The notes under the pieces: model-generated
What the model was told of the DNA's origin: nothing
Seen by the model: only the letters and a program-made list of their open reading frames with translations
Database searches by the model: none
From: Tubulanus polymorphus
Lineage: Eukaryota > Animalia > Nemertea
DNA: 64,000 nt
Reading direction: 5' to 3'
Assembly: GCF_964204645.1 (NCBI RefSeq)
Contig: NC_134035.1
Coordinates: forward strand, 8,216,451 to 8,280,450
Program-made: the position numbers and the translations under genes
Shown: positions 148-64,000 of the stretch, one piece after another
Layout: every line of letters starts with the position of its first letter
Position numbering within the stretch: the first letter of the stretch is position 1

Positions 148-3100
148 GACGCACTTCTTCCCGAGGAGAACGATTATGCCCTCGTGCAGGACGCCTTACC
201 TGCCGGAACACTGCACAGAATCTGGTCGACATTCCGTAAACCATCTCAACCAGAACCTAAAGGTATAGTTGGCTTCCATCTTTGGCTTTTGTTTATTTTA
301 TTCTAAGAATAACATCGTCGCGACCAGGTTACTGAGATGACACGACATCTTGAATAAAACGCTTGATGAGCAATAAATGAAATAGATATAAATCTTTTGT
401 TTTATGGAGAATGATTGCTATATTAGAAAAAAGTCTTCATGACTTAAAAGCCTTATTGTTTCACAGTGAAACAGATTTTTGAATGATTCACTGTCTGGAC
501 GTGGTTAGCCAGGACCTTCTGTAGTATATTAAAAGATTGTTTATTTCATTTGTTTTCGACGTGCAGGTGGAACGGATTCCGATTCGGAGTTTAGTTCGCT
601 GGAACGTTCGTCGCGAGACACGATTTACTCGCGCGTCAACCGCAAGCCGACGCCGCACAAGAAAAAACACCACCGCCAACGACCGCCTGTCATACACCAG
701 CAGATCGATGAGCCAGCGCCAATACCGCTGATCGGCGACGACCGTTGTCCGTTGATCACGCATAAAGGCCAAGGTACGTGACAAAACGTAAACGAATAGC
801 GCCCACTATTATCTATCACCGAAATCATTGTTGTTTTATCAGTTTATCAGTTGTCGAAAATCTATATTATTGAATGTACTATTACTTCTTAAATATTGTG
901 AAATCTGTGATTGTTATTGTTGTTGTTTGTTGTTGTTGTAAAATTATGACATTTCAAGCGCGGCGTTGAATACTTATTGATTTGAGGGGAAAAATGAAGT
1001 TTTTTGCTACTTCTCTATCTACCTTACCCTCAATACGCATGCACACATACATACATACACTTTTACCATGTTACTATGAGATGATGAACGTACGTCTTTA
1101 ATTTTTTGCTGCTCACAGTTTCCTAGCCTGTGTTGCTGGGGATAATTTGAAAAATCCAGAAAATTACACCACAGTCCACCCTTCAGCGAGGTGTATAACA
1201 GATATTCAATTATCTGGTATCTACCCTTCAGCGCGGTGTATAACAGATATTCAATTATCTGGTATCTTCCCTTCAGCCCGGTGTATGACAGATATTCAAT
1301 TTTCTGGCATCTACCCTACAGTGCGGTGTATAACAGATATTCAATTATTTGGCATCTACCCTACAGTGCGGTGTATAACAGATATTCAATTATCTGGCAT
1401 TTACCCTACAGTACGGTGTATAACAGATATTCAATTATCTGGCATTTACCCTACAGTACGGTGTATAACATATATTCAATTATCTGGCATCTACCCTACG
1501 GTGCGGTGTATAACAGATATTCAATTATCTGGCATCTACCCTCCAACAGTACGGTGTATAACAGATATTCAATTATCTGGCATCTACCCTACAGTACGGT
1601 GTATAACAGATATTTCATTATCTGGTATCTACCCTACAGTACGGTGTATTATAGATATTCAATTATCTGGCATCTACCCTACAGTACGGTTTATAACAGA
1701 TATTCAATTATCTGGCATCTACCCTACAGTACGGTGTATAACAGATATTCAATTATCTGGTATCTACCCTACAGTACGGTGTATAATAGATATTCAATTA
1801 TCTGGCATCTACCCGTACATAATGTTGTGGTGCAGTGTATCCTAGTACTAATGTTTTATAATGTCATTATGTCATTCGTCTCTTAGTTTGTTGAAACAAT
1901 ATTTACACATAAAACATTTGCATCTGATGATCATTGTTAAGATTTGAAAAAAATAGAAAGACGCGGGGGATCAACTGATATTTTCTTTATGGCATTAGTT
2001 GTAATTGTAAAGGTGTATATGCGTATGTCGGCATGCGTGATTGGCCCGATGTACTTGTTGTTTCAATTTGACTTTGTGGGAAATTTTGTAAGGAAAATGT
2101 AAATAGTTCATCTTCACGCTGTAATCTGTCAAAATTGATCCACGGATATCGTCGGTTTTTTTGCGCCATTCAATTCATTGTGTAAAAATTAGTTATTATA
2201 TCCGAGGCCGGGGTGGATCCGTGTACTAAACGTATGAAGCTGCAGCCTGAGCTGAGGGTTAACAAATTCAATTTCTCGGGAACGAACCGATCATTTTTGG
2301 AGCATCGATTGGAAGAGCGGCGCCATATTTTGCGGGGATCTGACACCTGGGTCCATCCTTCCCTCGGAAAGAAGCACAGGAATACACATATGCCATTAGC
2401 AATGCAATAATATTAAGCTAAAAGTGCTTACATTCTGATATAGGTGACTCGTTTTCTGATGTGAAATATGAATGTTATTGTTCAGTAATATCGATTTAGT
2501 AGATAATCATCAATTGAATGGTGCTGCTTTCTGCTTATGAATTTCATGTATATTTCATTCAAACTATTTTCTCTGTTGTTTCCACTTTGGTGTGTATATA
2601 TGTTCCTCGGCGTAATTCTATGTTGATATAATTCCCATTTTTGTTGTTATCTAAATGAAGTTTGAAGGCTTCGACTATCCCCCAATAAGAGGTGAAGAAT
2701 ACTACTTAAAAACAGCCGGATTTTCGTTTGAGTTTCACGAAAAGTACAGTAAACCTCGCCTTACTTGGACGTTGCCAACTCTGACGAATTTTCCCTATCC
2801 TTAATTCGAACTTTGAATAACTTGGAACAATTTTGCCGGTTTGCCAAATTTATCAGGTGAGGTTAACTGTACTTAGGTTGTACCGGTAATGACTATCTGA
2901 TGATGGTGACTTATGTTGTTGTAGTTTGTTTTTAGTCATTTCCCGGTTATCAAGATGCAGAAGATCTTTGAAAAATTCCACGCTAGTGTGTTGAGAATAA
3001 CGGGCATTACTGCTTTAGTGCGTCTATACTGCTGCGCAGTGTAGTAAGTAAATAATTGGTGCGGTGTACTAGCTAAGTCCATCACCGATTTTTACACCGC

Positions 3101-6100
3101 ACTGCGGTGTAGACACACTCAAAGGGTTAATCGTGTGCATTTGTTTCTAGGTTTATCTAGGTAGTCACTAAGGCTGAGGGCATCAATGTCACTTTATTTG
3201 TCAGGTTCTTGTACGCTGTGTATATGTATGTTAGCCATATTGTTGTTGTTGTTGCTGTATACATGTTTTGTATTAGGCCTATGTCATCGCGAGTTAAATG
3301 TCATTATGTATTATGTCATCGTGCGTTATATGTCGTATATGTATTATGTCGTCTTATTTTTCTATGTACACAGAAAATACACGTTGTGTCGATGTTTATA
3401 CCAATCCTTCTTGTGGTAAGAACCGCCTCCGATTACATATACATATTTATTCATAGTAGCACCGAAAAATAGTTTGTTGTGTGTCTTTTCCTCTCTCTCT
3501 TTATCTCTCTCTCTCTCTCTAATTATTATTATTATCATGATTATTATTATTACTATTATTATATTATTATTATAACTCTAGAAATACAACTATGGTCCTG
3601 TAGTTGTCGTGTGCTGCGTTGGATTCGATAAATGTTTCGTACCCTCGGTTTGAACTATTTTTGTATATAGTACAGACAGTTGCTTTTTTTCTTGTCATTA
3701 CTAAATGCGTCGAAAAGCTTACATAGAATGGACGAAAAAAATTATTTGATCGAAAACATCATTTTAGAAGATATAAGGCTAAAAAATGATAAAAAATGAT
3801 GTTCGTCAAAATCTGCTCGATGAGTAATTTTTTTCAGCCTGATATAAGATCTTTCATTGCGGTCTATATGCGAATATAACGTTCATTTCTGAATAAAAAG
3901 GTGCTCGAATTCAATTGTTCGGTACTTTTGGCCGAGGAGCATTTTATCAGCTGAAGTACTCTTGATAAGCCGTAAAGAGTGAGTGATTGAAAATTCTCGC
4001 TTCACTTCGAAAATGGACTCGACTGTTGGAAAAAAAACTGCAGTCGGCGACCGCTCACGGGCTTCGATTTTGCATCTGCTTAAATCATCCAATATCATAA
4101 CCATGCGCTGGGCCTGATTTTAGTGACTAGTTTCAACTCGACTATACGCGAATCGTTTATCGCCGGGTTCAACTTGAAACTGGTCGATAAAATCAGGCGT
4201 CGTGAAACATACACGCGACGTGACCGGGAAATACGATTCATTTGTCATTCAATACGCGCGCATTGTCATCATTAAGAAGTACGAGCAACGCTACTCTTAA
4301 TTCATCATCAAACCAGGTCCATAACAACACACCGCTACATAATAATCTATATCTTCAACTTAAACTATGCTACGTCTCTGTACGATCAAGTCCAAGCTCT
4401 GCCGATCTTTCGTATCATTTGCTTCGAGATTCTTTTCGCAAACGATCTTTTATTTTCGCCGTGTTTCTTGTACAGATTGCCGAATGCAGTGCCGTGCAGT
4501 TTCGTTTTGTTAAGATTCTCGGATAATCAAACACAAATTTATGGTTAATGTTCAATTTAATGCATTCTGCATGAATCATTAATTTAAATTTTCCAGTATG
4601 AAGAGAAGAGTGAAAATTAATTCATTTTACTGTTGATTAACCCGTTGAATCTTGAATTAAACCAATGTCTGGTATTTTCGATGAACTCTTTGAAATATGG
4701 GATTATGGGACATTCTTTATACGGGGTCGGTTCTATTGACAGGGGTTGGTTCCATAGTCGAGACTTTAGTTCAAACATGTGTTCTTAAAACCGGTTCTAA
4801 GTTGTAAGATTGACTAATTTTAAGAACTAGGTCGATCTTGGACTGGTCTTAAGTTAAAGACATGATTATGGAACCGGCTTTTCGGTCGCATTTCACAGAC
4901 CGCTTAAAGCTTCCTTGAAGTTTCATTAGTTATGCGCCAAGTCGTTCGAGGCGTCCTGCAAAATAGGCCTCAGGAATGAGTTCCACTGTTGTGAGTTAAG
5001 ATAGATTTAACTATAGAGTCAACCAACTGAAAATTAATTGATTGCACTCAAGAACTATAAGGGAACCAACTCCTGTGATGAATTTGTAACAAAATGAAAC
5101 TGCTGATATGGTTATCTTAAACTGTGTGACTATAATTCAATCATATATAATATTTCATAATCACCTGCTTCTCTTTCGTTGCATAATTATTATCATTCAT
5201 AATCAGTTCACACTATTTTGCTGCTTACGATGAAGATTCCATTCCTAACCCGTTCCAATTTTTGGTGGCGTATCTTAAGTTGTTCTTTATTAAATTTTTT
5301 TGGTGATATAATCATAACAAAAACGTTTGTTGTCACTGAATAACGCTAACAGCTTTATATAAATCACTAGACATCTCACTACAGCTTGGTGCGTATTTCA
5401 GATGTATTTCGATACGTACTTTTGCGACTTAATCATTTTCACCGACGCAGGAAAGTTGAACATATATTTGTGTCAAAGCTTTATTAATCAGTTCTACATG
5501 ATTTGACGATTTAAAGAACGCTTTTTGTCGGATTTAAGTTGGATTCGGGCTCGTATGTTCGCAGAAAATTGTGAGCGTTGAAGAGTGAGCACTGTGGCAT
5601 TAGAATTGAGATCAATGTATGGTGTTATAACTTACTTCTGACTCAAATTTTGTCGTTATTTTGGCATTGTTCTTCGGTCAGATGGAAGCTCGACGATTTC
5701 ATGGAATCACAACATCATTAGTCTATCGATTTGCAAGAAGAATGGCTGAAAACTATGGATAGAAAACAAATACCTGAAATTGGACAGTAAACCTTACCTA
5801 ACTCGGACAACCTGGGATTGGCTAAATTGGTCAGAGTTAAAGCGAAAGTCTGAGACAAAGATCCGAGAATATAGAATGCATTTTGTTTTTATCCGATTTA
5901 AGCCCGCCGCACACGGCATAAGATTTGTTTCGCCATAACAGAAAACACATTTTTCACAAAATGTTTTTTGTAAAACATTTTGCCCGCAAACGATAAAACG
6001 TTCAACGGACACGTGATGAAAAACGTTTTTGACTACACAAAAAGTTTTTTGCAAATGAAGCAGTGTTTGTTTCGTGAAAAACGATTTTCTGTTCGGCGTT

Positions 6101-29839: not shown

Positions 29840-30454
29840 TTATTTTTGCAAGAATTCAACGGGGCCGTAACAGCACTCACAACACAAACAGGCTTGTATT
29901 ATGGAAACGATCAGCCCGGTGAGGAATAACAGGGCTTTAACGATAGATATAGCGTAAAGTCCTGCCAGAGGGCTGACTGGGAAAATCCCAAAAATACCTA
30001 ACACTACAGCTGAATACCAAGACTCAGTAACTAACGCTGCTAGCGAAGCTAATGCGGCAAATATGCTAAGAATCATCAGACCGATGTGAGCGCTGCTTCC
30101 ACAACACGAGTCGTTCTTTCCGAGACTAATGCCGTATATACCGCTTATAACCAGCAGAATCCCTGCCCACAAGCCGCTACCGGCCGCTGCAAATTGCCAA
30201 ATTGCCAGTTCCGACACATTCAAAATCAAAAGCACGATCCCGGCTACGAACGACACGACACCCAACCCCAGAATCGAACCCCGCCTCAGTTGACGGTCGG
30301 GCATCGGGTTAACCTCCATCGGTTCTCGCATGATGTATATTTGTTTCTCACCGGCTGACTGGGTCTGGGGTGGCCCGCTGTATCCTTGATTAGCAGCTGC
30401 ATACGTCGGTGGCGATGCCTCGTAACTCGGCGGCGCTTCGTTTATTCCGGCCAT
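29840..30454 (-). CDS. MS4A/CD20-like four-transmembrane protein
   Basis: 204-aa single-exon ORF with N-terminal PPSY/PPTY motifs, four hydrophobic helices, GSGLWAGILLVISG typical of the CD20/MS4A family, and a Cys-rich C-terminal tail. Confidence 0.75.
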   Translation of the reverse strand: MAGINEAPPSYEASPPTYAAANQGYSGPPQTQSAGEKQIYIMREPMEVNPMPDRQLRRGSILGLGVVSFVAGIVLLILNVSELAIWQFAAAGSGLWAGILLVISGIYGISLGKNDSCCGSSAHIGLMILSIFAALASLAALVTESWYSAVVLGIFGIFPVSPLAGLYAISIVKALLFLTGLIVSIIQACLCCECCYGPVEFLQK

Positions 30455-42200: not shown

Positions 42201-44620
42201 GTCAGAATCAAGATGGCCGACTGGCAGCCATTGTTGTTCGTCAAAATCAGCACTTTTTAAACTTTTTGAACTTTTTGAGGGAAATTTTGAAGACACTTAA
42301 ATCAATTATCTTGATCTTTCATATATGTTTGAATCTCTCAAGGGCCCATCACCATAAGAAAAATTGGGTCGATCGGACTCAAGATGGCCGTCCTATGACC
42401 TTTTTAGTGCCCAAAAATCTCAATTTTGGCCCAAATTCTGAGGTACTGAGGTACTTCCTACTGGTTTGCCATTTCTCATTACAATTTGTGATGGGTGGGT
42501 TGTTTTATACCTGAGCCAGGTATTTTGGATCGGCCAATTGTGACGCAATTGGCGGCCATCTTGGTATCATCAGTACTCATTGGTAGGTGGGAAAAAGTTT
42601 TTCCACATTATATTGATACCAAAGCATATTTTGTTACCACAATTAATTGCAAAGTTGTAGCTCATGACATAATCTATGATTGTGGTGAGTTTTAAGGACG
42701 TTCGTTATTCTATATGGTCACCAGGGGGCGTTGAATAGTAGAATAACTTAGTATTTCCTTATTAGATTGGTACCTAGGCATATTTTGTTACCATGATCAA
42801 TTGCAAAGTTGTAGTTCATGACATGTTCTATGATTATGGTGAGTTTTAAGATCATTGGGTTTTGAATATTGTCACCAGGGGGCGTTGAATAGTAGAATAA
42901 CTTAGTATTTCCATATTAAATTGGTTACGAGGCATATTTTGTTATCACAATCAATTACAAAATCGTAGCTGCTGACATGTTCTACGATTGTGGTGAGGTT
43001 CAAGGTCATTGGTTTTTGTATATGGTCACCAGGGGGCATTAAATATTGAAATTGTTAGATTGTTGAACATTGGAAACCACTTCCCAAGTGGGCATGGTGT
43101 CCCTGGACCCCTAGTTGGTTTTCGTTGGCGACTTTGGAGTTTGTAATTTTTTTCTTATATATATATATATATTTTTCTCGAAGGAGAACGTCTCCTTAAT
43201 GTATATAAATGTGTATTGTACGTAGAGGGTACATGATGAATACACTTATACTATAGGATAGATCAAAAATACCTAAAACTTTGATCAAATTATAAACAGG
43301 ATTGTTCATCTTCCTCAACACTAGAATTGTGACGGTGTTCAAAGCGATGCCGAGTATCGTGACGGGTCCGTAACAGAACATATAAATGTAAACACTAAAT
43401 TTCAGATCCCAGCGTACCGGTTCGATATTCAGAACCTCTTCGCAGCGTCCGGACCACATTACTACGGTCGGTTGTATAGTCGTTGAAATATTTCTCATAT
43501 CCATCTTATTTCACCTGGTTATCTATGAATATATTTTACGAATGGCGATGACGTGATAGGTGAAATATATCGTCAGTTTCAAAATTATAGCCCTTACTTC
43601 TAGTATCATGTGCAGACACGTCATCCTATCCAGAATAGCAGAAACTCGCCTTGTTGGATCGATTGCATGTAATTTTCTAGTCTATATTTCACGCGCTTTA
43701 TTTATACGGGATATTGTGAATTTTCAAATCCGTAATTAGTTAATATTCCGTAAATTTCATGCATATGATATATACATTTCTCAAGCATCATATGTCACCG
43801 TACAAGCCGTATTAGATCACACGAATGGTCGCGAAATTCATCGAAAATGGACTCGTCTACAAAATATAGCACAACCTAATCCCAATTTTCATGTCGCTGT
43901 ATTGACCATATTTTTTTACCAAGAGGACTTCGGAGTCCAGTGGATCGAAGTAGTAACGTTTGATGTATTGGTTACAAATAGGCATGTAGATAGGTAAATT
44001 ATGGAAAAAATGAAAGACTATCAATTGCCAAATTCTTTCAACCAGTATTACAAGAAGAATGGTTAAACAATTAAAAGGTTCTAAATAAAAAGTGCATAAA
44101 TCTTTTTTATCAATATTGTTACAACTCATAATGTTGTTTGTGTTGAAAGACTACCTGTCATTACAAGGTCTATATGCAATGTTATCTTTTCGCACAAAGA
44201 TTGAATATTGCGATATTTTTGAAAAAGTATCAATAAGTTATTCAACTATGATATTTTTTTCACGTCCGATGAGTGTTTGCCGTGGCTGTTCTAAAATACT
44301 GATTTAAACATTTGGTTACTGTTCCTTTAACAATGCAAACATAATTTTCACCAAACAATGATGATGTTGCCTGGTTATACATGTATGAACGCATAACATT
44401 ATAACATTACAACCGCAGCTACAAACCTCATAGGTTTCTTGTTATTTGTAGTTACTATGAGGTTTGAATGTCAATGATGCTGCTAGGCAGAAAACCCGTT
44501 ATCGCAGTTTGAATATTTTTCGTATTTCTTTTATATTTATAGTTAGGCTGGCTGTCGACAATTCTCCATCTTGAGCAAAAATTTAAGAAGGAGCGGACGA
44601 GCGGAATTTTCGGATTCTAA
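33273..44620 (+). CDS. Patatin-like phospholipase with two EF-hands; exons 33273-33302, 34260-34463, 34756-34900, 35773-35903, 36065-36200, 37247-37333, 38047-38150, 38347-38441, 39236-39392, 40085-40186, 40959-41123, 41463-41558, 44543-44620
   Basis: Oxyanion motif LVFEGGGAKG, nucleophile GASIG, RMSIALP, catalytic DGGLLNNYP, EF loops DANNDGCIDRDE and DSNQNNKIEYDE. All exons are AG/GT bounded and phase-consistent. First (MGNLTINGFK) and last exons are the least certain. Confidence 0.88.
33514..33840 (+). mobile_element. CR1/L2-type LINE ORF2 3' relic
   Basis: LQKRAVRIITNSNYLEHTEPLFKRLKIL...LPDCFNDYF matches the typical post-RT tail of CR1/L2-clade LINEs. Confidence 0.7.
39510..39770. repeat. 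(ATT/ATC)n degenerate microsatellite
   Basis: Direct reading. Confidence 0.95.
40817..40872 (-). ncRNA. Penelope-type minimal hammerhead-ribozyme relic (inverted partial pair)
   Basis: Minus strand TGACGA-T-GATCTC-TAGTGC-GAGATC-GAAA-CGTCG; an opposite-facing truncated copy CTGACGATGATCTCTAGTG at 40854-40872. Confidence 0.5.
42004..43116 (+). mobile_element. Helentron-associated non-autonomous element (HINE/DINE-1-like)
   Basis: Sub-terminal inverted repeat GCCCACTTGGGA (42009) / TCCCAAGTGGGC (43082), (CCGT)n microsatellite near 42054-42087, ~154-bp internal tandem units at 42625-43040, 3' stem-loop, inserted in a T-run; empty paralogous site at ~45995-46010. Confidence 0.75.
43183..43504 (-). 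pseudogene. 5'-only truncated duplicate of the GPCR at 46213-47331, nested antisense in the last patatin intron
   Basis: 102-aa ORF nearly identical to the GPCR N-terminus through TM2; premature stop where the intact copy has CTA (Leu); the rest is deleted. Confidence 0.9.
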
Positions 44621-46212: not shown

Positions 46213-47331
46213 TTACTGTACCAATTTCCAATGGAAAAAAGTTCCTACGATCAATTTCTTCGCAGCGAGTCGGAATTTATTATTAGTAAAACAATAGACG
46301 ACAAAGTTTAAACAGGAATCGACGACAGTCAAAGCTATAGCGATTTTACGGTAAACATATAATGATTGTGATACACCCAAACCTGGAATAGGTTGGAAAA
46401 ATATTAGCCGGCTATCCTTGCCATAGGCCAGTTTTTCAATAAAGATCAATGATTCGCAGGTGATGTATACAAAAACTAAAGCAAACGACATTCGTAAAAC
46501 TCTCAGTTCTAAACTACTGGCAGCGGTGCTCCTATTCAAGGTTTTTCTGCTCGATAATTTACTGACTATCAAACTGATTATTAGAATCAAATTGAAAAGG
46601 ATCAGTGAACACATCGGTACAATTATACTGGCTACTGTTCCTGTCCAGGCATTTGTATACTTCTGCCATTTCAACAGTACTCCTTTAAAGTAGGGTAAAC
46701 GGCGTCCGTCACGAATAAGCGTCACCCCGGCATGGCCCTTGACACAAGCAAATGGTTTAAGTGCCCATGCCGGTAGCATGTTCGGAATATGACAAAGAAA
46801 TGCAAATATAGTAATAGAGAATACCAGAAAATTCACAACTTTTCGAGTCCAGAATAATCGTGATTTTAAGGGGAAAAGCGTAATGACAAGTCTTTCTAAA
46901 CTAATCAGCAGGACGCACCAGTTCCGAGTTAGTTGAAGAATAAAATATGGTCCATAAGCCACTTGAATAAATTCCCAACCGTAATGCCAGTCCTCATGGT
47001 GGAATAGAACGTCTCCTAGATGTATATAAATGTGCATTGTACGTAGAGGGTACATGATGAATACACTTGTACTATAAGATATATCAAAAATAGCTAAAAC
47101 TTTAATCAAATTATAAACTTCGGGATTGTTCAGCTTCTTCAACACTAGAATTGTGACGGTGTTCAAAGCGATGCCGAGTATCGTGACGGGTCCGTAACAG
47201 AAAATGTACATGTAAACACTAAATTTCAGATCCCATCGGTTTGGTATGGTATTCAGAATCTTTTCGCATCTCCCAGACCATGTTACTACTGTCGGTTGTA
47301 CAATCGTTGAAATATTATTCATATCCGTCAT
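46213..47331 (-). CDS. Class A GPCR, FMRFamide/sex-peptide/myosuppressin-receptor-like
   Basis: 372-aa intronless ORF with 7 TM helices; TM1 GIALN, TM2 LAIFD, TM3 ISLERL (DRY variant), TM7 DSCLNFVVYCFTNNKFR. Confidence 0.88.
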   Translation of the reverse strand: MTDMNNISTIVQPTVVTWSGRCEKILNTIPNRWDLKFSVYMYIFCYGPVTILGIALNTVTILVLKKLNNPEVYNLIKVLAIFDISYSTSVFIMYPLRTMHIYIHLGDVLFHHEDWHYGWEFIQVAYGPYFILQLTRNWCVLLISLERLVITLFPLKSRLFWTRKVVNFLVFSITIFAFLCHIPNMLPAWALKPFACVKGHAGVTLIRDGRRLPYFKGVLLKWQKYTNAWTGTVASIIVPMCSLILFNLILIISLIVSKLSSRKTLNRSTAASSLELRVLRMSFALVFVYITCESLIFIEKLAYGKDSRLIFFQPIPGLGVSQSLYVYRKIAIALTVVDSCLNFVVYCFTNNKFRLAAKKLIVGTFFHWKLVQ

Positions 47332-47940: not shown

Positions 47941-48310
47941 CTATTGGGAGAGATTTGGCGGCTATTGGGAGAGATTAGTTGCCCTCGTGAAATTATGCAT
48001 TCAAAAGACTTTCGTTCGCCAGAATTGTCGTTTGAGCTCATAAAAAATAAAGAATAAATTCTCGCATGCTCGAATTTATTTTTTATTTTTTACTCACTCA
48101 ACCTCTCGACCTCTGATATGAAAAGACACTTTTCTAATTACTCTAATATTTATATACATGAACATCATATAGATGAATATTATATTAATGAAATCAATTT
48201 TAATAAAAAATTTATATAATAAATGGAGAGTAAACAAGTACATAGTGAGAACAACAAATCATTCTTAGATGGCACCATGATATAGATTTCGAATAAAATA
48301 TGTAAAATAA

Positions 48311-49051
48311 ATGGTAGAATTAAAAGAATATAGAATATATGTAGATTCTAGAAAAATTACAAATCATTTATCTCATAATTTACTGGCACAATTAGATTGA
48401 GAATTTAAAAATTGTGTTGATTTAAAATTATTAAATATAAGTTTATGTCATTCTTTTCATAATATATCGAATAAAAGTCTTGATCATTTAGCTTCTAAAA
48501 TCTATGTTAGAAATTCGACTAAATAGTTTCATCTATATTTGAAACCGGGATTATATAATTTAGAATCATTAGCGCAAGAAATTATTAAAAGAGCTCGTTT
48601 AAAAATTGGCGCATCTAGTCAGTTTGAAATTAAATTTATCAAAAGTGATAGTTCGAATAAAATAAGAATAAAAGTAGGTAATGAACAACATAGATTTTTA
48701 GTAAGAAAACCTAAACTAAACTAAGCTAAACTGTGTGGAATTCTTCCAGATAAAGCTTATTCAAATATTGATACTTATACAAATATAAAACCTTTTACAC
48801 ACTTTTATATTTATTGCAATTCAATTGACCCAACAAAAACTTTCGAAGCAAATAAAGTATATTAAATATTTTACCATTAAAAATATTAAACAATTTGTAC
48901 ACAAATATATTATAATTTAGCTGAATGTGATTTTAAACCTTGTATTTCACAATTTAATAATTTCAAATTAGAAGTAAGAAATCATAATGGATATTCAATT
49001 GATTTAAATAATTTTCCTGTAATTTATAAATTAGTTATAAGATGTAAATAG
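48311..49051 (+). pseudogene. Penton/minor-capsid-like pseudogene
   Basis: MVELKEYRIYVDSRKITNHLSHNLLAQLD*EFKNCVDLKLLNISL is collinear with the 63436 ORF; in-frame stops at 48398 and 48524 plus later indels; C-terminus FKLEVRNHNGYSIDLNNFPVIYKLVIRCK*. Confidence 0.85.
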
Positions 49052-49071
49052 TAATTTTTTGTTATATAAAT

Positions 49072-49326
49072 ATGAATATTACTGTTGGACCGAGTATATG
49101 TTTTGAATTTGATTTTAAACGTGAAAAAGAAAAGAAATTTGGTATTAATGATGTAATAACCCATCTTAAAAATACTACGTTTTTTAATGAAACAACATTT
49201 GATTATGAATCAACAATAAGTAAAGAAGTTAGTAATGTAGAAAAAATTAGTGATTTAATTAGAAATTCTTTAAGATTTTATAAATTAGATGAAGATTTTA
49301 TTATTGATGATATCAAAAAATATTAA
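49072..49326 (+). pseudogene. Viral hypothetical ORF (84 aa, probably truncated)
   Basis: AT-rich ORF directly after the penton stop, preceded by the element promoter-like motif GTAATTTTTTGTTATATAAATATG. Confidence 0.45.
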
Positions 49327-49426
49327 CTGAAATATATAAAAATAAAACTAATAATATCATAAACATTGAATTAATAATAACTAAGATAACTAAATATTTT
49401 GAAGATAGCAATTTTTAAATAAATAA

Positions 49427-49628
49427 ATGAGTGATGATAAGTGTATAATAAATGGATTATATAATGGTGGATTATTATCAGTTGGAAATGTTGGATATAC
49501 AATTAATATATATTATATTATATTATATACAATTAATAATTTCAAAATTAACATTAGCAGTTACGTAATCTAATTTAACAATTGATTATTTGGAAAAACA
49601 AAAATATATTGCTCCTATAAATGCATAA
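49427..49628 (+). pseudogene. Small adintovirus/Polinton membrane-protein ORF, disrupted
   Basis: MSDDKCIINGLYNGGLLSVGNVGYT...IDYLEKQKYIAPINA* resembles a small conserved ORF I recall from group-2 Polintons; broken by an AT-rich duplication near 49500-49540. Confidence 0.5.
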
Positions 49629-49642
49629 TCTGTGTTAAATAA

Positions 49643-50066
49643 ATGGCGTCTGCAAATATTACTATTATGGGATCGGCAATTGTTAACGCTTTAGCATTTA
49701 CAGGTGGTGGTTATTTATTTAAACATATTGAAAAAAATGGTTCATTATCAGAACAAAAAAAGACATAACTTAGCATTAGAAAAATATGTTAAAGCTAATA
49801 AAGAATATAGAGAAAAGAGACAAAATTGTATGGATTATGTTAATGAAGAATTATATAATCAAAATATTTCACATCGAGATTCTAAGTCAGTCGATGATGC
49901 TATGAGTTTATATAACGCAGTAACAAATAAAGAAAAATTACATATATATAAACCTACAATATCAGATTATTATACACCAAGTAATGAACAGAAGAAATAT
50001 GAAATAATATGGATTTTAGGTGGAACAGTTCTTGTTATATTTGTGGCATACAGATTTACAAATTAA
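49643..50066 (+). pseudogene. Conserved adintovirus/Polinton membrane/coiled-coil protein, +1 frameshift in the A7 run at 49755-49761
   Basis: MASANITIMGSAIVNALAFTGGGYLF...EQKRHNLALEK...DYVNEEL...SDYYTPSNEQKKYEIIWILGG has the NALAFTG / ERKRH / SDFYxPS pattern of this family (recalled, not searched). Confidence 0.7.
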
Positions 50067-50195
50067 TTATATATTATATTTTTAGGTTGAGTGAGTAAAA
50101 ATGAAAATAAATTCGAGTGTGTGAGAATTTATTTTTATTTTTTATGAGCTCGACCTTTCGACCTTTGGTCTGAAACAAGACTTATCTTATTACTT

Positions 50196-51085
50196 AGGTC
50201 AAACAGCTGGGGCGACTGACTTCTTAGTAATAGTGCTGTAGTTTTTGGCGAACTGTAGGTTTGCCTATGCAAACCGTCTGGTGAAGCAGTCTTCATTGAA
50301 AATGAATAGAGCACCGGTGTGTCAACAAGGCACAAACATTGGCTGTTGAACCAATAGTGGTGATTTTTTGCGTCATTGTATGGCCTAATGAGTTCTCGAG
50401 CCCACAAAATTTCATAGTGATCGAGTTATTTTTAGGGGACTTATTCTTGAAAAACACGTAAAAACCCTGCTTTTTAGCACTAAGTGATGGCACGTTTTTA
50501 CATATGACAATTTGCATATTTGGAATTGAAATATATAAAAATTCTATCCTTCCTGGAAGTGTTGCCATTTTTGTGCGACTGATCTCGATGAACTTTTCGA
50601 CCTACAGGCCCTCACTTTATAAACCCCCTAAATTTTCTCGTTTCTATTTATCTGAGTTGACCTTGCTACCTGAGCTACAATGAATGCGATTGGCTGTTTG
50701 TGGGATATACGGGAAATTCTGGGAATTTCGGCGCTTCTGATGTAATTGGGAGAGCCCCATGTGGAACTCGCTAAAAAGCAAAATGGCGAGCATTTCATTC
50801 GACTAGGTATCGTATGCGGGCTTATAATTTGTTCGGTTTTACGAATATAGCCGAGTAGGCTATTCAATTCAGTATCCAAACTAGCAAATATGACGATACT
50901 GCTGGAGTTTTGGCTTAGATTTGTCTTGTCAACGCCTTAGACCTGCTAACCCGTACGGTTTAACCGCGGCCGTCGGTCCGCTTTTTTGTGAACCGTGTAA
51001 CTGTTCTACTCTATTCAATTTGAGTACGTTCTTCCTAACAAAGAATGATTAAACGAAACAGGCCAAGCGCCCCAGCTGCTTGACG
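50196..51085. mobile_element. Non-autonomous DNA transposon abutting the relic's end
   Basis: Inverted ends GTCAAACAGCTGGGGCG ... CGCCCCAGCTGCTTGAC. Confidence 0.55.
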
Positions 51086-55631: not shown

Positions 55632-56940
55632 TCGGTTCGTGAAACAACGTTTCCGACATGAAAAATGTTTGATTCCGTCTTTCTGTGCAGGTTCCGTATT
55701 TCTCTGCGTGTCGTTTGGCTTGCAATTTATAATTGCTAATCGTCTTCTAGTGTCCCCAGATTCGAACCGATTAAAGCTGACGAATCACGACGATAAGCAA
55801 TTAATTCGATCGGGGATTTCTAAGGCAGCCATTCCGGGAAGGTATACATACAGTCCTATCGTCCGAGCAGCGTTCACCGTCAAATTGATATTGTTCGAGC
55901 AAAAAGCCCATAGAAAGCGCGGACATTTTTTTAAACCAAAACGTCTCGATAAACTGGCCGTAAATTTAGTAGGAGCATTCTAGAACGTGTGAATATTATG
56001 AATGTGTCATGTGATCTCCCTTACATGTGGAGAAAGGGTCCTTCATCTCTGAAGATATCCCGTGCCGATGGAGGCCACTGGAAACAGAATTGTAGTAGCA
56101 AGCAAAAAAGTGACAATAACAAATTGATTGCAGCAAATGCCTGAAATACGTTTTTTTGGGTTTTCCGGGGACCACGTGATTGTTTTCAACCGATGAAATC
56201 GTCGCTGGACCAGTTCAATCAGATACCAATCAGCTTGCGAAAAATCATCAAGATACAAGCAGTAAACACTGAGTAAAATCGTGCGCCGTTACCGCTTTTC
56301 ATGATATGGATATCATTACTGATGGTAACGTGTAATTGATGACGTATCAAAACCGATCGAAAGCACGTTGATTTGAACTCGTGTTTCGCTCCACGACGCT
56401 ATAGGCGTTATACACGATATACGATATTCACCAAAAGCTGACATTTATTTGAAACTACACGTAGAAAGCACACTCGCGTATACATCGATCGCTACGACTT
56501 CGCTAGCTCGGTAGCGAAATATGTAGCAACGCCGGATTTATTCTGATCTTTTGGGTTCAAGTCTAGTGCTGTACTAACTGGGGCTTTGTGCCTGAATGAA
56601 TGGTACCGTTATATTGCGAGTCTATAATTAGAATTCCTGCTGACTGATTGGCTGAAATTTAAGTCTGCTTCCGTTTGGCCCTCTATAAATATTTCCACAC
56701 CGGTTTATCGCCGTTCCATTTCCATTAGTTTATACAATGATTGACTACCACTTTCTCCACGGCGACACTATTTGGTACATAGTTTCGTATCAATATATAT
56801 ATCGTAATCCGTTCTGAATTATTGGCCTGTTTTATTATAATGAAACAAGTCATTTTATTATAATGAAACAAGTCATTAATACAATTTGAGTAATTAGAAA
56901 AGTAGGGTTTCAGATCAGAGGACGAGAGGACGAGACACCA

Positions 56941-57007
56941 CTCATCACCACAAGTAATTTTTTTTTTCCTACTCATCACCACAAGTAATTTTTTTTCCTT
57001 ATAAATG
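56941..57007 (+). promoter_or_regulatory. Putative viral promoter of PolB: duplicated CTCATCACCACAAGTAATTTTTTT followed by TATAAATG
   Basis: Direct ~31-bp duplication; the same CTCATCAC...TTTTCCTT(A)ATAAATG arrangement precedes the VLTF3-like ORF on the minus strand (63365-63410). Confidence 0.55.
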
Positions 57008-60000
57008 GGGGAGAATGAACACCAGCCAGAAAACAATAATGTTAATAAAAATCAATATTATTGCACATATTGTAAAAAATATGTTGATACATCTAATAAA
57101 ACACGACATGAAAAAACTGCAAATCATATAAAAAATGTAATAGATTTTGAAACTCCAGAAAATTCTAATGAAAGAAAAGAACGATTAGAAAATATGAATG
57201 TGAATGAAATAAAATGTGAAGTTTGTAACGAATTTATAGTAAAAAGGAATTATAATAGACATCTCGAATCACAAAAACATTATAAAAATTTAAATAAAAA
57301 TGTTTTAGGATTAGAATATTTTGATAATAAACCTCAACAAGTAAAAGAATCAACTTCAAAAACAAAATCTATTTCAAATAAACCTTACATGGAAAATGTT
57401 AGAAATTATATTGATTCACTAGAAATAAAAGATACAATTGAAATCTTAGAAACATTACATAGTAAAATTGGTCCTGCAGCTATTATATTTAGATTTTTTA
57501 AAGGTACAACAATAGAAGATTATAGTAAATTTAATGAAATAATAGAAAAAATACTAGATTTGATAACAGATGTTGAATATCCAAAAATAAGTATCTCTGG
57601 GAAAGTAAGTTTTATAAAGTCAGAAGAAAAAATGGATTATAATATTCAAACACACTCTGAAGAAATAATTTCAAAAACACAAATAAAAGAGAAGTTAGAA
57701 AAAATATTAAATGAATTTAAACGTCATATTGAAGAAAGATATTTTGAGGGTTCTGGCTTAACATTGAATGAAATTATATATTTAGATTTAAATGTTTATA
57801 ATACAAAAAGGAATAAAACATCAAAAAGTAATAAAATGTTTAAAAATGATTCAAACTTTATAACAGAAAAAGATATGAAAGCATCAAGTTATATCAAATT
57901 ACCATTTATAACAAAAGCAGTAATAAATATTCAAAATGAAGATAATAAATGTTTTCTATGGTCAATTATTAGTTGCTTACATCCAACACAGGAAAATGTT
58001 TGTAGAATAACAGATTATCGGAAATATGAAACATTATATAAAATTGATCAATATCCAGTAACTATAAAAATGATTCCTAAAATAGAAAAAGTTAATAATT
58101 TAAAAATAAATGTATTTGAATTAATGCAATTACCAAAGACAAAAGGTGAAAATATTAAAGATTATACATTGGAAGCTTTATATTTAACAGAATATTATGA
58201 TGATGAAAATGCTGTAGATTTGTTATATTACAAAAAAGATGAAAATGAACATTATATGTGGTTAAAACAAATTGATTTATTCTTTAGAACAGAAAGTGAT
58301 CATCATAATAAAATTTATCTATGTAGAAAATGTTTATCTAAATTTATGACTGAGAATACATTATTAAAACATAAAGAATTATGTGATAATAAAGATTTTT
58401 GTAAATTAATAATGCCAACAGAAAAAGATTATAAATTGAAATTTACTAATTATAAATTTAAAAATATTGTTCCATTTGTAATTTATGGGGATTTTGAATC
58501 GTTGAATAAAGAATTAACTAATCAAGATAGAAAAGAAATATATAACAAAAAGCAATTATTAAAATCAATGGATAAAGGAAATGAATTAAATGAAGACACA
58601 ATACAAGACCCACCAATTATAAATACAATTAAAAAAGTTCATCAAAGAGCTGCTGCTTATGGAATTTACATCAAATCAAATTATCCCGAATTATATGAAA
58701 GTCAATATATTTCTTTTAGAGGTGAAAATGTAGTTAATGATTTTTGTGATAAAATGATTGAATTAGAAAGTGATTTTACAAAATTATTAAACAAAAATAA
58801 AAGAATAGTTATGACAAAAGAAGATGAAATTGATTTTAATTATGCAACTCATTGTTGTTACTGTGAAAAACGTTTTTATTCATTTGATAAAAAAGTTAGA
58901 GATCATGATCATTTAAATTCAAAATATCGTGGAGCTGCTCATGAAGATTGTAATTTACAAGCTAAAAAAGTAAATTTCGTACCAATATTATTTCATAATT
59001 TATCAGGATATGATACCCATCTATTTATAAAACAATTATCGGGAAAATTGGGTGCAATTAATCAAGAAATAGAAGAATATAATGCTATGAATGAAGCAAA
59101 TGTAAGAAAATATGATTTTAAACTATTAGCTAAAACATCTGAAAATTATATTTCATTTCAATTTGGTTGCATTAGATTTTTAGATTCTTATAGATTTCTA
59201 GCAAGTTCATTAGATAATTTATCAAAATCATTAGTTGATAATGATTTTATTATAACTCGATATTATTATCCAAATGAACAAGATTTTAAATTATTGAGAT
59301 ATAAAGGCGCAATTCCTTATTCATTTTATAAAACACATGATGATTTTAATGTAACAGAATTATTAAAAGATCAATTTTATGATCAATTAAAAGAGGAGTA
59401 TGTGAAAGACGAAGTTTTTAATAGAACATTAAATATTTGGAACCATTTTAAGATGAAAAATCATGGTGAATTAGTTGATTTATATTTAAAATCAGATGTT
59501 ATGATATTGGCAGATATATTTGAAAAATTTAGAGAAGTTAATTTGAATCATTTTAATGTTGATCCTTGTTATTGTTATTCTAGTCCTGGTTTAACCTGGC
59601 AATGTGGTTTAAAATATACAAATGTAGAATTAGATTTATTAAAAGAACCAGATATGGTTTTATTATTTGAAAAATCAATTAGAGGTGGAATTAGTGGTGT
59701 TATGGGAGATAGGTATTTTAAAGCAAATGATGAATATAAATTATTATATATTGACGCCAATAATTTATATGGTTGGGCAATGATGCAACCTCAACCATAC
59801 AAAAATTTTATATTAACAGAAGTTGAAAATGATGATAAAACTGATTGGGAAAGCGCAATTACGAGTTTAAAAGATGAAGCACCAATTGGTTATTTCTTTG
59901 TAGTTGATTTGGAATATCCCGAAAATATTAAATTTAAAACAAGAAACTTGCCATATTGCCCCGAACATTTAGCCGTAGATGATAGTTATTTAAGTGAATA

Positions 60001-62069
60001 CCAGAAGAAAGTAAAACCGAAAGATCATGTTTTTACGGAAAAATTAATACTTACTCAAAATAATAAATACAATTATATTGTTCATTATAGAATGTTAAAA
60101 TTTTATCTAAAACAAGGAATGAAATTAAAGAAAGTACATAGATATATTGAATTTAATCAATCGAAGTGGTTAGAAAAATATATAGATTTCAATACTCAAC
60201 AGAGAACCATATCAAAAACAGATTTTGAAAAAGATTTCTTCAAATTGATGAACAATAGTTTTTATGGTAAAACATGTGAAAATATTAGAAATAGAAATGA
60301 TATTGAATTAGTAAATAATTCTGAAAGATTAAGACATTTACAATCAAGTCCTAGACATTTAGGAAATAAAAGATTTGAAGATTATTTAACAGCAGTTAAA
60401 TTAAAAAGAACATCAATGAAATTTAATAAACCTATATTTATTGGTTCGACTGTTTTAGAAGTATCAAAATTATTAATGTATGATTTTTATTATAATGTTT
60501 TACAACCACTTTTTGGAGAAAAACATATAGAAATATTATATTTTGATTCTGTAACAGCTGACACCCCAATATTATTAAAATATAATAACCAAATATTAAT
60601 TAGAAGAATTTCAGAAATAATTTCAAAACAAAATGAATGTTATATTTCATATGGTGAAAAAGAATTAATACAAATAAATGGATTAATGGATGTTTGGACA
60701 AGAAATGGATGGAAAAAATTAAAGAATATTATTAGACATAAAACAAATAAGAAAATCTATAGAGTTAGAACTAAATTAGGGTTTGTAGATGTTACAGAAG
60801 ACCATAGTTTAATTAAACAAAATGGTGATGAAATAAAACCAACTGATATAAAAATTGGAGATGAATTATTACACAACAGATTTTACCCAAGAATGAATCA
60901 TATGTCATTTGATGAAATAATTGATAATATTTATAATATAGAACCCGAAACATTGGAAGAAAAAGAATATTTTATCAAAGGATTTTTCATGGGTGATGGT
61001 TCAGCAGGTATGTATAAATATGTTAGTGGAACTAAATATTGTTGGTATTTATGCAATCAAGACTTAAAATTATTAGAAAGAATAAAGAAATTCTGTGAAG
61101 AAGTTTATCCAAATAAAACATTTAGAATCATGGATGTTATGAAATCAACAGCAGTTTATAGAATACTTGTAAATAATCCTAAAGATTTTGCTATAGAATA
61201 TAATGATGAATTCTATATTCATGCAATAGTGAAAAGTAATACTTCAACAAAAGAAAAGATAGTTCCAGATTATGTATTAAATGCAAAAAATAATTTAAGA
61301 AAATGGTTCTTCATTGGATTCTATGCTGCAGATGGTTCAAAAAGTTTCAAAAACCGCAAAAACAATATCTTTAGCTCAAAAAGGAAAAGTTGCTATATCA
61401 GGATTGAATATATTATGCAGTTCATTAGGATTTAATATGAATATTGGATTGATTAAATCTAAACCAAATTGCTTTAATTTAAGCCATGTAGAAAATGAGT
61501 TAACAGAAGAAGTTAAAGATTTATTTGAAATATATAACCCAACAGATTATGTTTATGATTTATCAACTGAAGATGGTACATTTAACAGTGGATTTCCATT
61601 AATAGCGGCCAATACGGATGCCTACATACTAAAAATCAAGACAAATAACATAACAAAAGACTTAAAAACATTAAAACATCATTTTGATTTTAGCAATTAT
61701 CCTAAAGATCATGAACTATTTAGCAATGATAATAAAAAGATTCCTGGTAAATTTAAAGATGAATTAGGAGGTGATGAAATGATTGAATTTGTTGGGATAA
61801 GAAGTAAAATGTATTCATATAAAACTAAAGATCATGAATCTAAAAAGTTAAAAGGAATAACAAAACATGTGGTTGATAAACATATAGAATTTCAAGATTA
61901 TATAAAGTGTTTATATAAATCAATTGTAATGAAACACAAAATGAATTGTTTAAGATCAGAAAATCATGAAATGTACATAAATGAAATTGAAAAAACTAGT
62001 TTAAATCCATTTGATGATAAAAGGCATATTTTAGATGATGGTATAAAAACATTACCTTATGGCCATTAA
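57005..62069 (+). CDS. polB: Protein-primed family B DNA polymerase (pPolB) precursor containing an intein; split by a +1 frameshift at ~61339-61362; mature extein product would be ~1332 aa
   Basis: ExoI VIYGDFES, ExoII FHNLSGYD, ExoIII YLKSDVMIL, PolA YIDANNLYG, PolB KLMNNSFYGK, PolC YFD|TDA, C-terminal GKFKDE...RSKMYS...KLKGI...PFDDKR...TLPYGH; N-terminal C2H2 fingers, NEDNKCFLWSI and DHDHLNSKYRGAAHEDCN typical of group-2 Polinton PolBs. Confidence 0.95.
60548..61613 (+). mobile_element. Intein with LAGLIDADG homing endonuclease (355 aa if one base is removed)
   Basis: Block A SVTADTPILL, block B VDVTEDHSLI (TxxH), block C FIKGFFMGDGS, block E FFIGFYAADGS, block F YVYDLSTEDGTF, block G LIAAN followed by extein Thr; removal restores YFDTDA. 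Confidence 0.95.
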
Positions 62070-63367
62070 AACATAAAATCAATATCATCAAACTCGAAAT
62101 CACTATTGGCTTCTTCATTTTCATTTAATTGTTCAGGTTCTTCTTCAATTCCATTTTTCTCATTTAAATAAATTTCTATCTTGTTCCACATTTCATCTCG
62201 CTCTCTTTGTTTCTTTTTGTTTGTTAATTCATCAAATGGAATTATAATATCTAGGTTTAAATAATTTACAATCTTATTTAAAAAGAATTCATAATTTATT
62301 GAATCTGTTATTCTATTTTCCAAATGATACATTAATATTTGTTTAAATATTTTTTTTATATTTTCCATATCTTCTTCTGTTAATTTAGGTTTTTCATAAT
62401 AATCGTTAAATAATAAATATAAATACATTTTCTTTTGTTTTGTGTTAAATGTTGACGGAATAATTGTTTTTATAATATCTTTTTTAGTTATTTCACCATT
62501 TTTATTTTCTATTATTTTCATTTTTTCAAGCCATTGCATATATTCTGGTGTATGATCTTCTATAGAAAATATTTTAAAAATTTCATCTAGATAATTTAAT
62601 TTTGGTTCTATGAGAAAATCTCTAGTTTTTTCTTCACCCCATAAATTCTTTTGCCATCCACATTCAACACAAAATAACACAGCACCTTCTTGTCTTAAGG
62701 TCGCATAACTACATTGTGGGCATTTTCGTTTATAATTTATTGGTAATAGATCTTCATTAAGCTCTTGGTATTTTCTTACGTTTTCTTTATGTTTTATTGT
62801 TCTATTATGTAGATTTGAATTACTTGTTGTAATAATCAATTTACAATATTTACAATAATATGTTTTTCTTGTTAATTCATTATATTGTTTTTCTAACTTT
62901 TCAACTGTTTCTTTATTATCTGGTAACGTTTTCTCATATTTTATTTTTTCTAATAAATTATTTTTTCTTTCATTGAATTCAGTTTCAAATTTATTAGAAA
63001 TTTTATCTATATGTGCTTTACGAAATTGATGATTCTCCCAATCTTCTATATTTTCAGGGTTATATTTTATTCGACAAGGCTCACAGAAATGATCTTTTAT
63101 ATTATCCTTATCATAGAATAAGAAAGGTCTTTTCCAAATAACTTCAGGTTCAACTTCGGCAGATTTACTATCAACATTAGCCGTTGCGCCATTAATTCTA
63201 CACTTCTCTGAATGTTTTTTAACATAATTTCTTGAGAATAATTTATTACATTTTGGGCAGTTTATTTTAGGGGGTTTATAATTTTCATCATGTTTTTTCA
63301 TATGTCGAGCCATATTACTTTTTCTTAGAAGTTCACCACAAATTTCGCATGCTATCTTCTCATCCAT
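62066..63367 (-). CDS. Multi-zinc-finger protein fused to a VLTF3 (vaccinia A2L)-like late transcription factor domain
   Basis: N-terminal C2H2-type fingers; zinc ribbon CPQC-x13-CVECG (62657-62722); C-terminal SINYEFFLNKIVNYL...RERDEMWNKI resembles the VLTF3 S-Y-x-F/Y-x-L-x-K...D-x-x-W-x-K-I pattern; stop overlaps the PolB stop (TTAA). Confidence 0.7.
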   Translation of the reverse strand: MDEKIACEICGELLRKSNMARHMKKHDENYKPPKINCPKCNKLFSRNYVKKHSEKCRINGATANVDSKSAEVEPEVIWKRPFLFYDKDNIKDHFCEPCRIKYNPENIEDWENHQFRKAHIDKISNKFETEFNERKNNLLEKIKYEKTLPDNKETVEKLEKQYNELTRKTYYCKYCKLIITTSNSNLHNRTIKHKENVRKYQELNEDLLPINYKRKCPQCSYATLRQEGAVLFCVECGWQKNLWGEEKTRDFLIEPKLNYLDEIFKIFSIEDHTPEYMQWLEKMKIIENKNGEITKKDIIKTIIPSTFNTKQKKMYLYLLFNDYYEKPKLTEEDMENIKKIFKQILMYHLENRITDSINYEFFLNKIVNYLNLDIIIPFDELTNKKKQRERDEMWNKIEIYLNEKNGIEEEPEQLNENEEANSDFEFDDIDFMF

Positions 63368-63435
63368 TTATTAAGGAAAAATTTTATTAAAATTAATTTT
63401 TAGTGATGAGCGGTAATTTTTTTATGTTATAAATA

Positions 63436-64000
63436 ATGGTAGAATTAAAAGAATACAGAATATTTGTAGATTCTAGAAGGCTTACAAATTATAAATCTCA
63501 TAATTTATTAATACAATTAGATAGAGAATTTAAGAATTGTGTTGATTTAAAATTAGTAAATATTAGTTTATGTAATTCTTTTTACAATGTAACGGATAAA
63601 AGTCTTGAACATTTAATTTTTTCAATCTTTTATAAAAAAAGGAATAAATGGTTTTTTATATATTTAAAACCAGGATTATATAATTTAAATACATTAGCAC
63701 AAGAAATTAATAGAAAAGCTCGAGCTAAATTAGGAAGTGATTCTGGATTTAATATTAGAATTTTAAAAAGTGCTAGTTCTAATAAAATAAAGATTAGGTT
63801 AGACGAACAATTTAAATTTACAGTAAGAAAACCTTTAGGTAAACTGTTAGGAATTGCCCCTGATATTGTTACAGCATACGCAGAAGGTAAATCAAACTTA
63901 ATGCCTTTTACACATTTTTATATTTATTGTAATTTAATCGATCCTACAAAAACATTCGAAGCAACTAAAGATATAACTTGTAATTCTGGTTTACTAAACA
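63436..64000 (+). CDS. Penton/minor capsid protein-like ORF, open to the window end (not in the ORF track)
   Basis: MVELKEYRIFVDSRRLTNYKSHNLLIQLDREFKNCVDLKLVNISLCNSFYNV...KPGLYNL...LGKLLGI...HFYIYCNLID, 188 codons with no stop; motif order fits single-jelly-roll pentons of Polintons/NCLDVs. Confidence 0.75.
   Translation, partial: MVELKEYRIFVDSRRLTNYKSHNLLIQLDREFKNCVDLKLVNISLCNSFYNVTDKSLEHLIFSIFYKKRNKWFFIYLKPGLYNLNTLAQEINRKARAKLGSDSGFNIRILKSASSNKIKIRLDEQFKFTVRKPLGKLLGIAPDIVTAYAEGKSNLMPFTHFYIYCNLIDPTKTFEATKDITCNSGLLN

Follow-up and report, generated by a model that had tools for sequence, protein, structure and literature searches.

Mavericks/Polintons and Alpha adintoviruses (Polintoviricetes; PMC8502044) have a protein-primed B-family DNA polymerase (pPolB, PF03175) of the Alpha type with OTU-like motifs, a penton and an AG-starting terminus, and they integrate in multiple copies. 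A VLTF3 gene on a Polinton or polinton-like virus (PLV) backbone is present in some stony-coral polintoviruses (PMC11131425) and in Zephyr-group PLVs (10.64898/2026.06.19.733378), and neither "promoter" nor "intein" occurs in either text. Entomopoxvirus-associated PLVs (PMC11296320), small DNA viruses of animals that are proposed to be poxvirus parasites, were found in occlusion bodies of their known helper and have highly divergent capsids; one relative lies in a beetle chromosome, and that work holds no promoter analysis. Both the occurrence of VLTF3 in Polintons and PLVs associated with poxviruses have been published before. Mavirus and the EMALEs of Cafeteria (PMC10945749) are integrated multi-copy elements of a protist, in which endogenous virophages bear the late promoter of their Mimiviridae helper, and their reactivation and protective effect were shown experimentally. 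The yeast cytoplasmic virus-like elements pGKL1/2 (PMC6211774) combine pPolB and terminal inverted repeats (TIRs) with a TAAAN initiator and with leaders made by slippage; they encode a poxvirus-like RNA polymerase of their own and have neither capsid nor integration.

The window analysed here is a stretch of 64,000 nucleotides of chromosomal DNA from the nemertean Tubulanus polymorphus, and its right part is the left end of a Maverick/Polinton family present in about 35-65 copies in the genome of this animal (Table 1). The element (24% GC) starts at position 56889 with AGTAATTAG. This read-confirmed, AG-starting left end is conserved, and its terminal core of about 46 nt recurs in the related loci L015 and L016 and at each end of a sister fragment that also lies in the window; the right end lies outside the window. 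Run X6 reads with loose letters before 56889 number 430 and 756 in two read sets and agree at only 0.37, which indicates many insertion sites. The reads show no pile-up of starts of the kind expected from free linear ends. The PF03175 match and the penton are two Maverick/Polinton hallmarks. The initial annotation had reported neither integrase, ATPase, protease nor major capsid gene; the rve integrase, A32 ATPase and protease are indeed absent from the window, which covers about one third of the element judged by the usual Polinton size, but a penton/minor capsid gene at 63436 had been missed. The sister locus L002, whose pPolB is only 33% identical to that of the window, has Pox_A32 and an rve integrase with chromodomain, as Mavericks do. 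Searches for a complete clade member found none and returned only L002, a partial contig, and two distant loci.

Table 1. Features of the element and of its sister fragment in the window
Feature	Position	Strand	Description
Degraded sister fragment, same family	48035..50194	+	Broken penton and small homologs of L063 genes; starts of the TAAATG type; each end carries the terminal motif
Left terminus	56889..56935	+	Conserved terminal-inverted-repeat core AGTAA...GAGAGG.CGAG; core comparison and loose-end reads
Initiator-like motif TAAATG	57002..57007	+	Overlaps pPolB start codon; T-run upstream
Alpha-type pPolB gene	57005..62069	+	Frame-broken in this copy; PF03175
Intein at polymerase motif C (YFD|TD)	60548..61613	+	Begins with Ser and ends with Asn, with Thr at +1; contains a TxxH block and two LAGLIDADG motifs
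Frame-break region	61330..61435	+	Endonuclease half of intein; not common to all copies; read length differences
433-aa protein gene	62066..63367	-	Zinc fingers of C2H2/U1 type at the N-terminus, then a C4 zinc ribbon; the C-terminal part, at about 62162-62395, is a VLTF3 (poxvirus A2-like) domain
TAAATG at VLTF3-like gene start	63365..63370	-	A-run then T-run before motif
TAAATAATG at penton gene start	63430..63438	+	
Penton/minor capsid protein gene	63436..64000	+	Single jelly roll, runs off window; homolog P0199

The pPolB matches PF03175 with an E-value of 9.4e-20 (71.4 bits, cut-off 25.8). It comprises N-terminal zinc fingers, OTU-like Cys/His motifs, exonuclease motifs I-III, an HNH-like insert and polymerase motifs A-C. 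The reading frame is broken inside the intein, where length differences occur in 28 of 44 reads of one set and 34 of 106 of another, so no complete polymerase can come from the window copy, which would depend on sister copies for it. Whole open pPolB frames are present in relatives. In pPolB trees L002 is sister to the clade of the window (SH-aLRT 92 and 96, the only type of support calculated), a grouping that joins two long branches.

The intein at motif C is absent from the pPolB inserts described for nematode Polintons, which are HNH and VSR domains in a text without the words "intein" or "LAGLIDADG" (PMC10748475), and no published account of it was found. Its Pfam matches to PF14890 (E 1.2e-7, 32.1 bits, cut-off 35.8) and to LAGLIDADG_3 (E 0.002) are both under the cut-offs. 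The splice blocks and the +1 nucleophile are nonetheless present, at a site that is empty in the pPolB of three close relatives, and the ends of the intein coincide with a read joint that skips the same stretch. Together with these empty sites, the 97 same-species DNA reads that skip the intein show that it is found in only some copies. The window copy has no single open frame through the intein; those of P0001 and P0003 are open over 354 and 350 aa.

A Mimivirus-like PolB intein had been named in the initial annotation. The intein is real, and it is 41% identical by BLAST to the Mimivirus PolB intein (P0038), with which it shares the motif-C site, the Ser/Asn/Thr splice residues, the lack of a penultimate His and the LAGLIDADG domain. 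It is not specifically Mimivirus-like, however, and a strict Mimivirus derivation was rejected, since it groups most closely with two other Polinton inteins, within the PolB inteins of giant-virus type. These three inteins of protein-primed polymerases form their own clade (support 99) among 107 others, all but four of them located directly behind YGD in primer-dependent PolBs (103), and that of the window, unlike P0038, sits in animal chromosomal DNA. The window intein is also common to a Beta-type pPolB, with 52% identity in the intein and 25% in the palm; it has therefore circulated among Polintons and says little on present lifestyle. Judged by these comparisons, it was apparently acquired once, long ago, and passed between Polintons afterwards; it would then record an earlier encounter with giant viruses.

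The ORF that runs off the window was identified as a penton or minor capsid gene through its 41% identical homolog P0199. The structural model of this homolog (mean pLDDT 61.8) matches PBCV-1 capsid chains (Z 12.0 and 10.8), the mavirus penton (Z 8.0) and Sputnik (Z 6.8), as well as minor capsid proteins in BFVD.

Between pPolB and the penton gene lies the 433-aa protein gene, whose stop overlaps the pPolB stop tail to tail. The whole protein gives no VLTF3 match in Pfam and no homolog by word search, but its C-terminal part scores 26.6 and 27.6 bits against PF04947 (cut-off 25). In Foldseek, six of the ten top BFVD matches are named VLTF3 or late transcription factor, the named VLTF3s among them being 14-23% identical, and the best fold match is cowpox VLTF3. 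The VLTF3/A2L-like factor proposed in the initial annotation is thus confirmed. Both the zinc ribbon and the C-terminal helical VLTF3 domain are present, and the protein differs from the VLTF3s of coral polintoviruses and Zephyr-group PLVs by its extra zinc fingers and the matching gene starts of its element. L016 bears a different gene at this position, and none of the seven L002 ORFs matches VLTF3, both loci being partial contigs.

The gene starts and the Hint and LAGLIDADG intein at motif C distinguish the family from known Mavericks and Alpha adintoviruses. Poxvirus intermediate and late promoters, as defined in PMC11980589 and PMC5294985, consist of TAAAT(G) overlapping the start codon and a T-rich stretch about 10 nt upstream, and this pattern is found here. 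The TAAATG starts noticed in the initial annotation are confirmed: pPolB and the 433-aa gene begin with TAAATG, and the third gene has TAAATAATG; across the window, L015, L016, L063 and L002 the motif is found at 17 of 18 gene starts, once two internal ATGs behind frame breaks are dropped (17 of 20 before). T is enriched at -12, -11 and -10 (18, 14 and 15 of 23 starts), and vaccinia late promoters likewise carry upstream T (PMC11980589, PMC5294985). In 77 other pPolB loci the motif precedes 18 of 338 ORFs, host and chance ORFs included, with 9 of 119 for the 13 IMG/VR loci outside the clade and 5 of 36 for AT-rich loci (Fisher p 9e-9 for the clade against the last). The whole clade thus has TAAATG at its gene starts, in clear contrast to the controls, and no published account of such wiring in Polintons was found.

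An ordinary Maverick, in which AT richness or an AAAATG start context would generate TAAATG as a by-product and the presence of intein and VLTF3 would have no bearing on it, would fit the low GC of the element, where 22 of 312 ATGs follow TAA, and zinc-finger cargo genes are common in Mavericks. AT richness was rejected as the cause by the AT-rich controls and by L002, which at 38% GC has the motif at all seven starts, and two host gene starts that were examined have A at -3. This explanation is largely refuted and very improbable. Stop-start coupling was also rejected as the source of the motif, since pPolB is the first gene after the terminus and the VLTF3 and penton genes are a divergent pair. 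The motif could also be a relic of an ancestor that parasitised a large DNA virus, in a family that now spreads only as a transposon. The broken frame of the window copy, the decayed sister fragment and numerous near-fixed differences between this copy and the reads speak for such a vestige, but TAAATG is kept at non-orthologous genes across elements with 33-73% pPolB identity and relatives have open pPolB frames, which points to ongoing selection and leaves this explanation with hardly any probability.

AATAAA occurs 64 times in the pPolB coding strands of the clade against 64.1 expected and 184 times in the others against 183.7, so its depletion does not separate nuclear from cytoplasmic elements, and TTTTTNT is not depleted in the genes of the clade taken individually. 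In a nuclear Polinton with no helper, host Pol II would transcribe the element, the VLTF3-like factor of the element would read TAAATG as a private promoter and the giant-virus genes would be captured cargo. The element does encode a zinc-finger VLTF3 protein, integration is nuclear and homing of the intein between copies could occur there, and VLTF3 is known from a polintovirus subgroup; coral polintoviruses, some of which carry it, express hallmark genes in host RNA, with no helper mentioned in the accessible part of that report (PMC11131425). On the other side, the overlap of TAAATG with the ATG leaves T at -3, where A is the commonest base in most other long pPolB loci, and the motif-bearing L016 and L002 have no VLTF3 in the stretch covered. 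We know of no case of VLTF3 directing Pol II; this explanation is rather unlikely. Vaccinia VLTF3 works with the viral RNA polymerase (PMC11980589).

A cytoplasmic element that does not depend on a giant virus is also conceivable. The poxvirus-like RNA polymerase would then be encoded in full-length copies or on a sister linear element, in the way that pGKL2 of yeast supplies one both to itself and to pGKL1. The initiator, leaders and polymerase of the yeast elements (PMC6211774), the pPolB that they have in common with Polintons (PMC11071308) and the large part of the element beyond the window agree with this. However, an RNA polymerase gene was not found in the window, L015, L016, L063 or the seven ORFs of L002, and a gene set with penton (window) and rve integrase (L002) differs from that of the yeast plasmids. 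This explanation is unlikely.

On balance, we lean towards transcription of the family by the poxvirus-type RNA polymerase of a putative helper large DNA virus. The element would then be an endogenous Polinton virus, a virophage-like parasite resting in host chromosomes, whose genes would be transcribed from the poxvirus-type TAAATG by a cytoplasmic RNA polymerase that a co-infecting large DNA virus supplies. Transcription would begin in the AAA of the motif, and slippage of the vaccinia kind would then give a 5' poly(A) leader in place of the unfavourable T at -3. The polymerase gene, too, starts in the late manner, so that the element could be expressed only once the helper had reached its post-replicative phase, and the zinc-finger-extended VLTF3 would draw or divert the late transcription complex of the helper to the element. 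A single acquisition, in a compartment common to an ancestor and a giant virus, would account for the intein, which would now spread among copies by homing.

The promoter argument for helper transcription is now stronger than in the initial annotation, being clade-wide and controlled, but TAAATG, VLTF3 and the intein do not each prove on their own that the family depends on a helper today. Nor do they agree on one helper lineage: TAAATG is poxvirus-like, as is the best fold match of VLTF3, and the named outgroup relative of the intein is Mimivirus. The expression of coral polintoviruses described above, the absence of VLTF3 from its place in L016 and from the L002 ORFs (partial contigs), and the possibility of an own RNA polymerase or promoter factors beyond the window also count against a helper. 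The backbone is Maverick/Polinton; "virophage-like" stands for a likely lifestyle, not for family membership. In mavirus and EMALEs the promoter motif is that of Mimiviridae, whereas that of the window family is poxvirus-type, and the entomopoxvirus-associated PLVs were found with a known helper while the window family is judged by its promoter motif.

In its widest form the proposal is tentative and rather doubtful: an animal Polinton lineage would consist of endogenous virophages of an undiscovered, large poxvirus-type DNA virus of invertebrates, silent in chromosomes, activated by the late polymerase of the helper, hijacking it with their own VLTF3, serving as an inherited antiviral defence and exchanging an intein by homing. 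A benefit to the host is possible but hypothetical. The intein, present in some chromosomal copies and missing from others, provides a natural system for homing studies in an animal. Being found at almost every gene start of one clade and seldom in others, TAAATG makes it directly testable how animal Polintons express their genes and whether any of them depend on a helper virus; if helper transcription is true, it predicts an undiscovered poxvirus-type virus in the host.

Among ORFs of 100 aa or more whose 5' end is closed, TAAATG stands at the start of 17 of 20 in the window element and five related loci (2/4 in the window element, 2/2 in L015, 3/3 in L016, 0/1 in L017, 3/3 in L063, which was placed in the family via its penton and small genes, and 7/7 in L002). 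Once two internal ATGs behind frame breaks are removed the count is 17/18, with TAAATAATG as the lone exception, versus 18/338 ORFs in 77 other pPolB loci (AT-rich ones, 5/36), and the poxvirus-late-type starts reported in the initial annotation are borne out. T is enriched 10-12 nt upstream of the ATG (23 starts, five of them motif-picked from a decayed fragment). Vaccinia late promoters have the same arrangement, TAAATG over the start codon with T residues upstream, and vaccinia A2L is an intermediate gene (PMC11980589 and PMC5294985).

L002, a Polinton of 38% GC with genes for an A32 ATPase and an rve-chromodomain protein, was first picked out by its TAAATG count and afterwards adjoined the window's clade in the pPolB tree (72 loci matched, the 38 with 400 or more aligned residues retained; 40 rows; SH-aLRT 92 and 96, no bootstrap). 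Its rve integrase and chromodomain protein has a fused protease-like N-terminus, assigned by motif with no Pfam match. L063 encodes at 513-944 a membrane protein of two helices whose SLATT match is weak (E 0.008, below cut-off).

The 433-aa protein matches Pox_VLTF3 above the Pfam cut-off in its C-terminal part and has five phmmer relatives, including P0121, the gene at the corresponding position in L015. Its AlphaFold model (8 sequences, mean pLDDT 69) matches best cowpox VLTF3 (E 2.9e-6, 17% identity) and next Megaviridae VLTF3, and six of the best ten structural matches are named VLTF3 or late transcription factor. The VLTF3/A2L-like domain proposed earlier is real and does not point to one donor lineage. 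The penton ORF has five homologs, and the model of one, P0199 (pLDDT 62), matches PBCV-1 capsid chains (Z 12.0 and 10.8), the mavirus penton (Z 8.0), a Sputnik capsid entry (Z 6.8) and many minor capsid proteins; the first gene inventory, in which no major capsid gene was visible, had overlooked this capsid-type gene.

Features of the element and of its host flank
Feature	Position	Remark
CD20-like ORF	29840-30454	host flank; below Pfam cut-off
Rhodopsin-type receptor genes, duplicated	43196-43504 and 46213-47331	host flank; below Pfam cut-off
Decayed sister fragment	48035-50194	
Element left terminus	56889	
pPolB gene	57005-61435 and 61323-62069	two frames
Intein	60548-61613	within polymerase motif C
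433-aa gene	62066-63367	minus strand, in element
Open ORF	from 63436	penton gene

Near 57,000 the GC content passes from about 39% to 22-25%, and the flank, with microsatellites besides the receptor and CD20-like ORFs, fits an animal chromosome. The terminal core is alignable among the window element, L015, L016 and the sister fragment. In X6, raw DNA reads with the same species label as the window, 756 reads run on left of the terminus into unrelated DNA (agreement 0.37), which makes the terminus exact and implies many insertion sites. X6 depth is 7-10 in unique flank bins and 345-618 in pPolB bins outside the intein (at 82% likeness), which gives about 35-65 copies of the element.

At 56939-56971, immediately inward of the terminus, the window copy has a 31-nt tandem duplication that is absent from 203-218 X6 reads. 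The two terminal AGTAAT motifs of the sister fragment, ending at 48142 and 50194, share one orientation, and its 68-nt subterminal, imperfect AT-rich hairpin is in opposite orientations at the two ends, which resembles flip/flop forms; a long subterminal hairpin also occurs in L016. In the sequencing run X1, single contigs of element variants have word depths of 1,720-4,298 versus 25-35 in unique host contigs, X6 covers those variants with 12-34 reads, its unique depth being 7-10, and the two runs agree on about 45-fold for a host repeat at 50405. Some copies may be amplified in sample S1, contig depth not being equal to copy number.

The polymerase matches PF03175. A search with its intein region found 307 proteins, and among the best 120, which were used, P0001 (62%) is the best and P0003 (49%) the third-best match, both pPolBs with open inteins. 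Of the other 118 listed, 117 carry PF00136, and the sole named protein among them is Mimivirus PolB (41%); 'giant-virus-type' for the nearest other polymerases is a label from domains and the presence of Mimivirus, cluster look-ups yielding no taxon names. In a FastTree of 110 of the 121 intein sequences (these 120 and the window; 11 short matches left out), the three pPolB inteins form one clade (support 99) nested in the remaining inteins, and the Mimivirus intein is not its sister; the closest kin of the intein first described as Mimivirus-like are other Polinton inteins. P0003 is a Beta-type pPolB that has this intein in motif C; its palm shows 25% identity and its intein 52%, values that indicate intein transfer between Polinton groups.

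L015 (82% in the tree core), L016 and L017, the nearest relatives, have no insertion at the intein site. In X6, 50 clean reads and 47 with few differing letters skip the intein, and depth is 164-252 within it versus 447-590 beside it; the intein is therefore in roughly half of the copies, divergence also lowering depth there. The window copy has its frame broken in the endonuclease half, with length differences at the break in 28/44 reads in one comparison and 34/106 in another. The intein records past giant-virus contact and is no record of present dependence.

An mRNA start within the AAA of TAAATG would best explain a motif that overlaps the ATG with T at -3, and would need a poxvirus-type polymerase; 5' poly(A) leaders via slippage at such an initiator are described in vaccinia and yeast virus-like elements (PMC6211774). 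No poxvirus-type RNA polymerase is encoded in the element DNA examined (window part and related loci), which speaks against a polymerase of the element's own or of a sister, a source we consider improbable. A nuclear promoter private to the element and recognised through its own VLTF3 is somewhat less doubtful, yet still unlikely. Since that DNA encodes no such polymerase and the start of pPolB itself is also of late type, a helper virus is, on a slightly better than even judgement, the simplest source.

Neighbouring literature reports VLTF3 in coral polintoviruses, with expression of hallmark genes in that group (PMC11131425), and pPolB homing endonucleases, taken as 'suggesting' invasions by inteins (PMC11071308); pPolB inserts are HNH and VSR in PMC10748475, a text in which the word 'intein' is absent. 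Other sources cover Polintons and Alpha adintoviruses (PMC8502044), VLTF3-bearing PLVs (10.64898/2026.06.19.733378), entomopoxvirus-associated PLVs (PMC11296320), endogenous virophages, mavirus and EMALEs (PMC10945749) and related matters (10.64898/2026.10.13.758929, 10.1101/2024.03.23.586382, PMC3671162, PMC12220804, PMC7765530). The literature searched, with few subscription journals, showed no TAAATG-wired Maverick and no motif-C intein in pPolB; supplementary gene tables could list either.

The observation behind the initial annotation is thus confirmed and its interpretation partly supported: TAAATG starts and the VLTF3 domain speak for transcription by a helper virus, and the intein marks past contact, not present dependence. 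What results is a testable model of helper dependence and an unusual intein.
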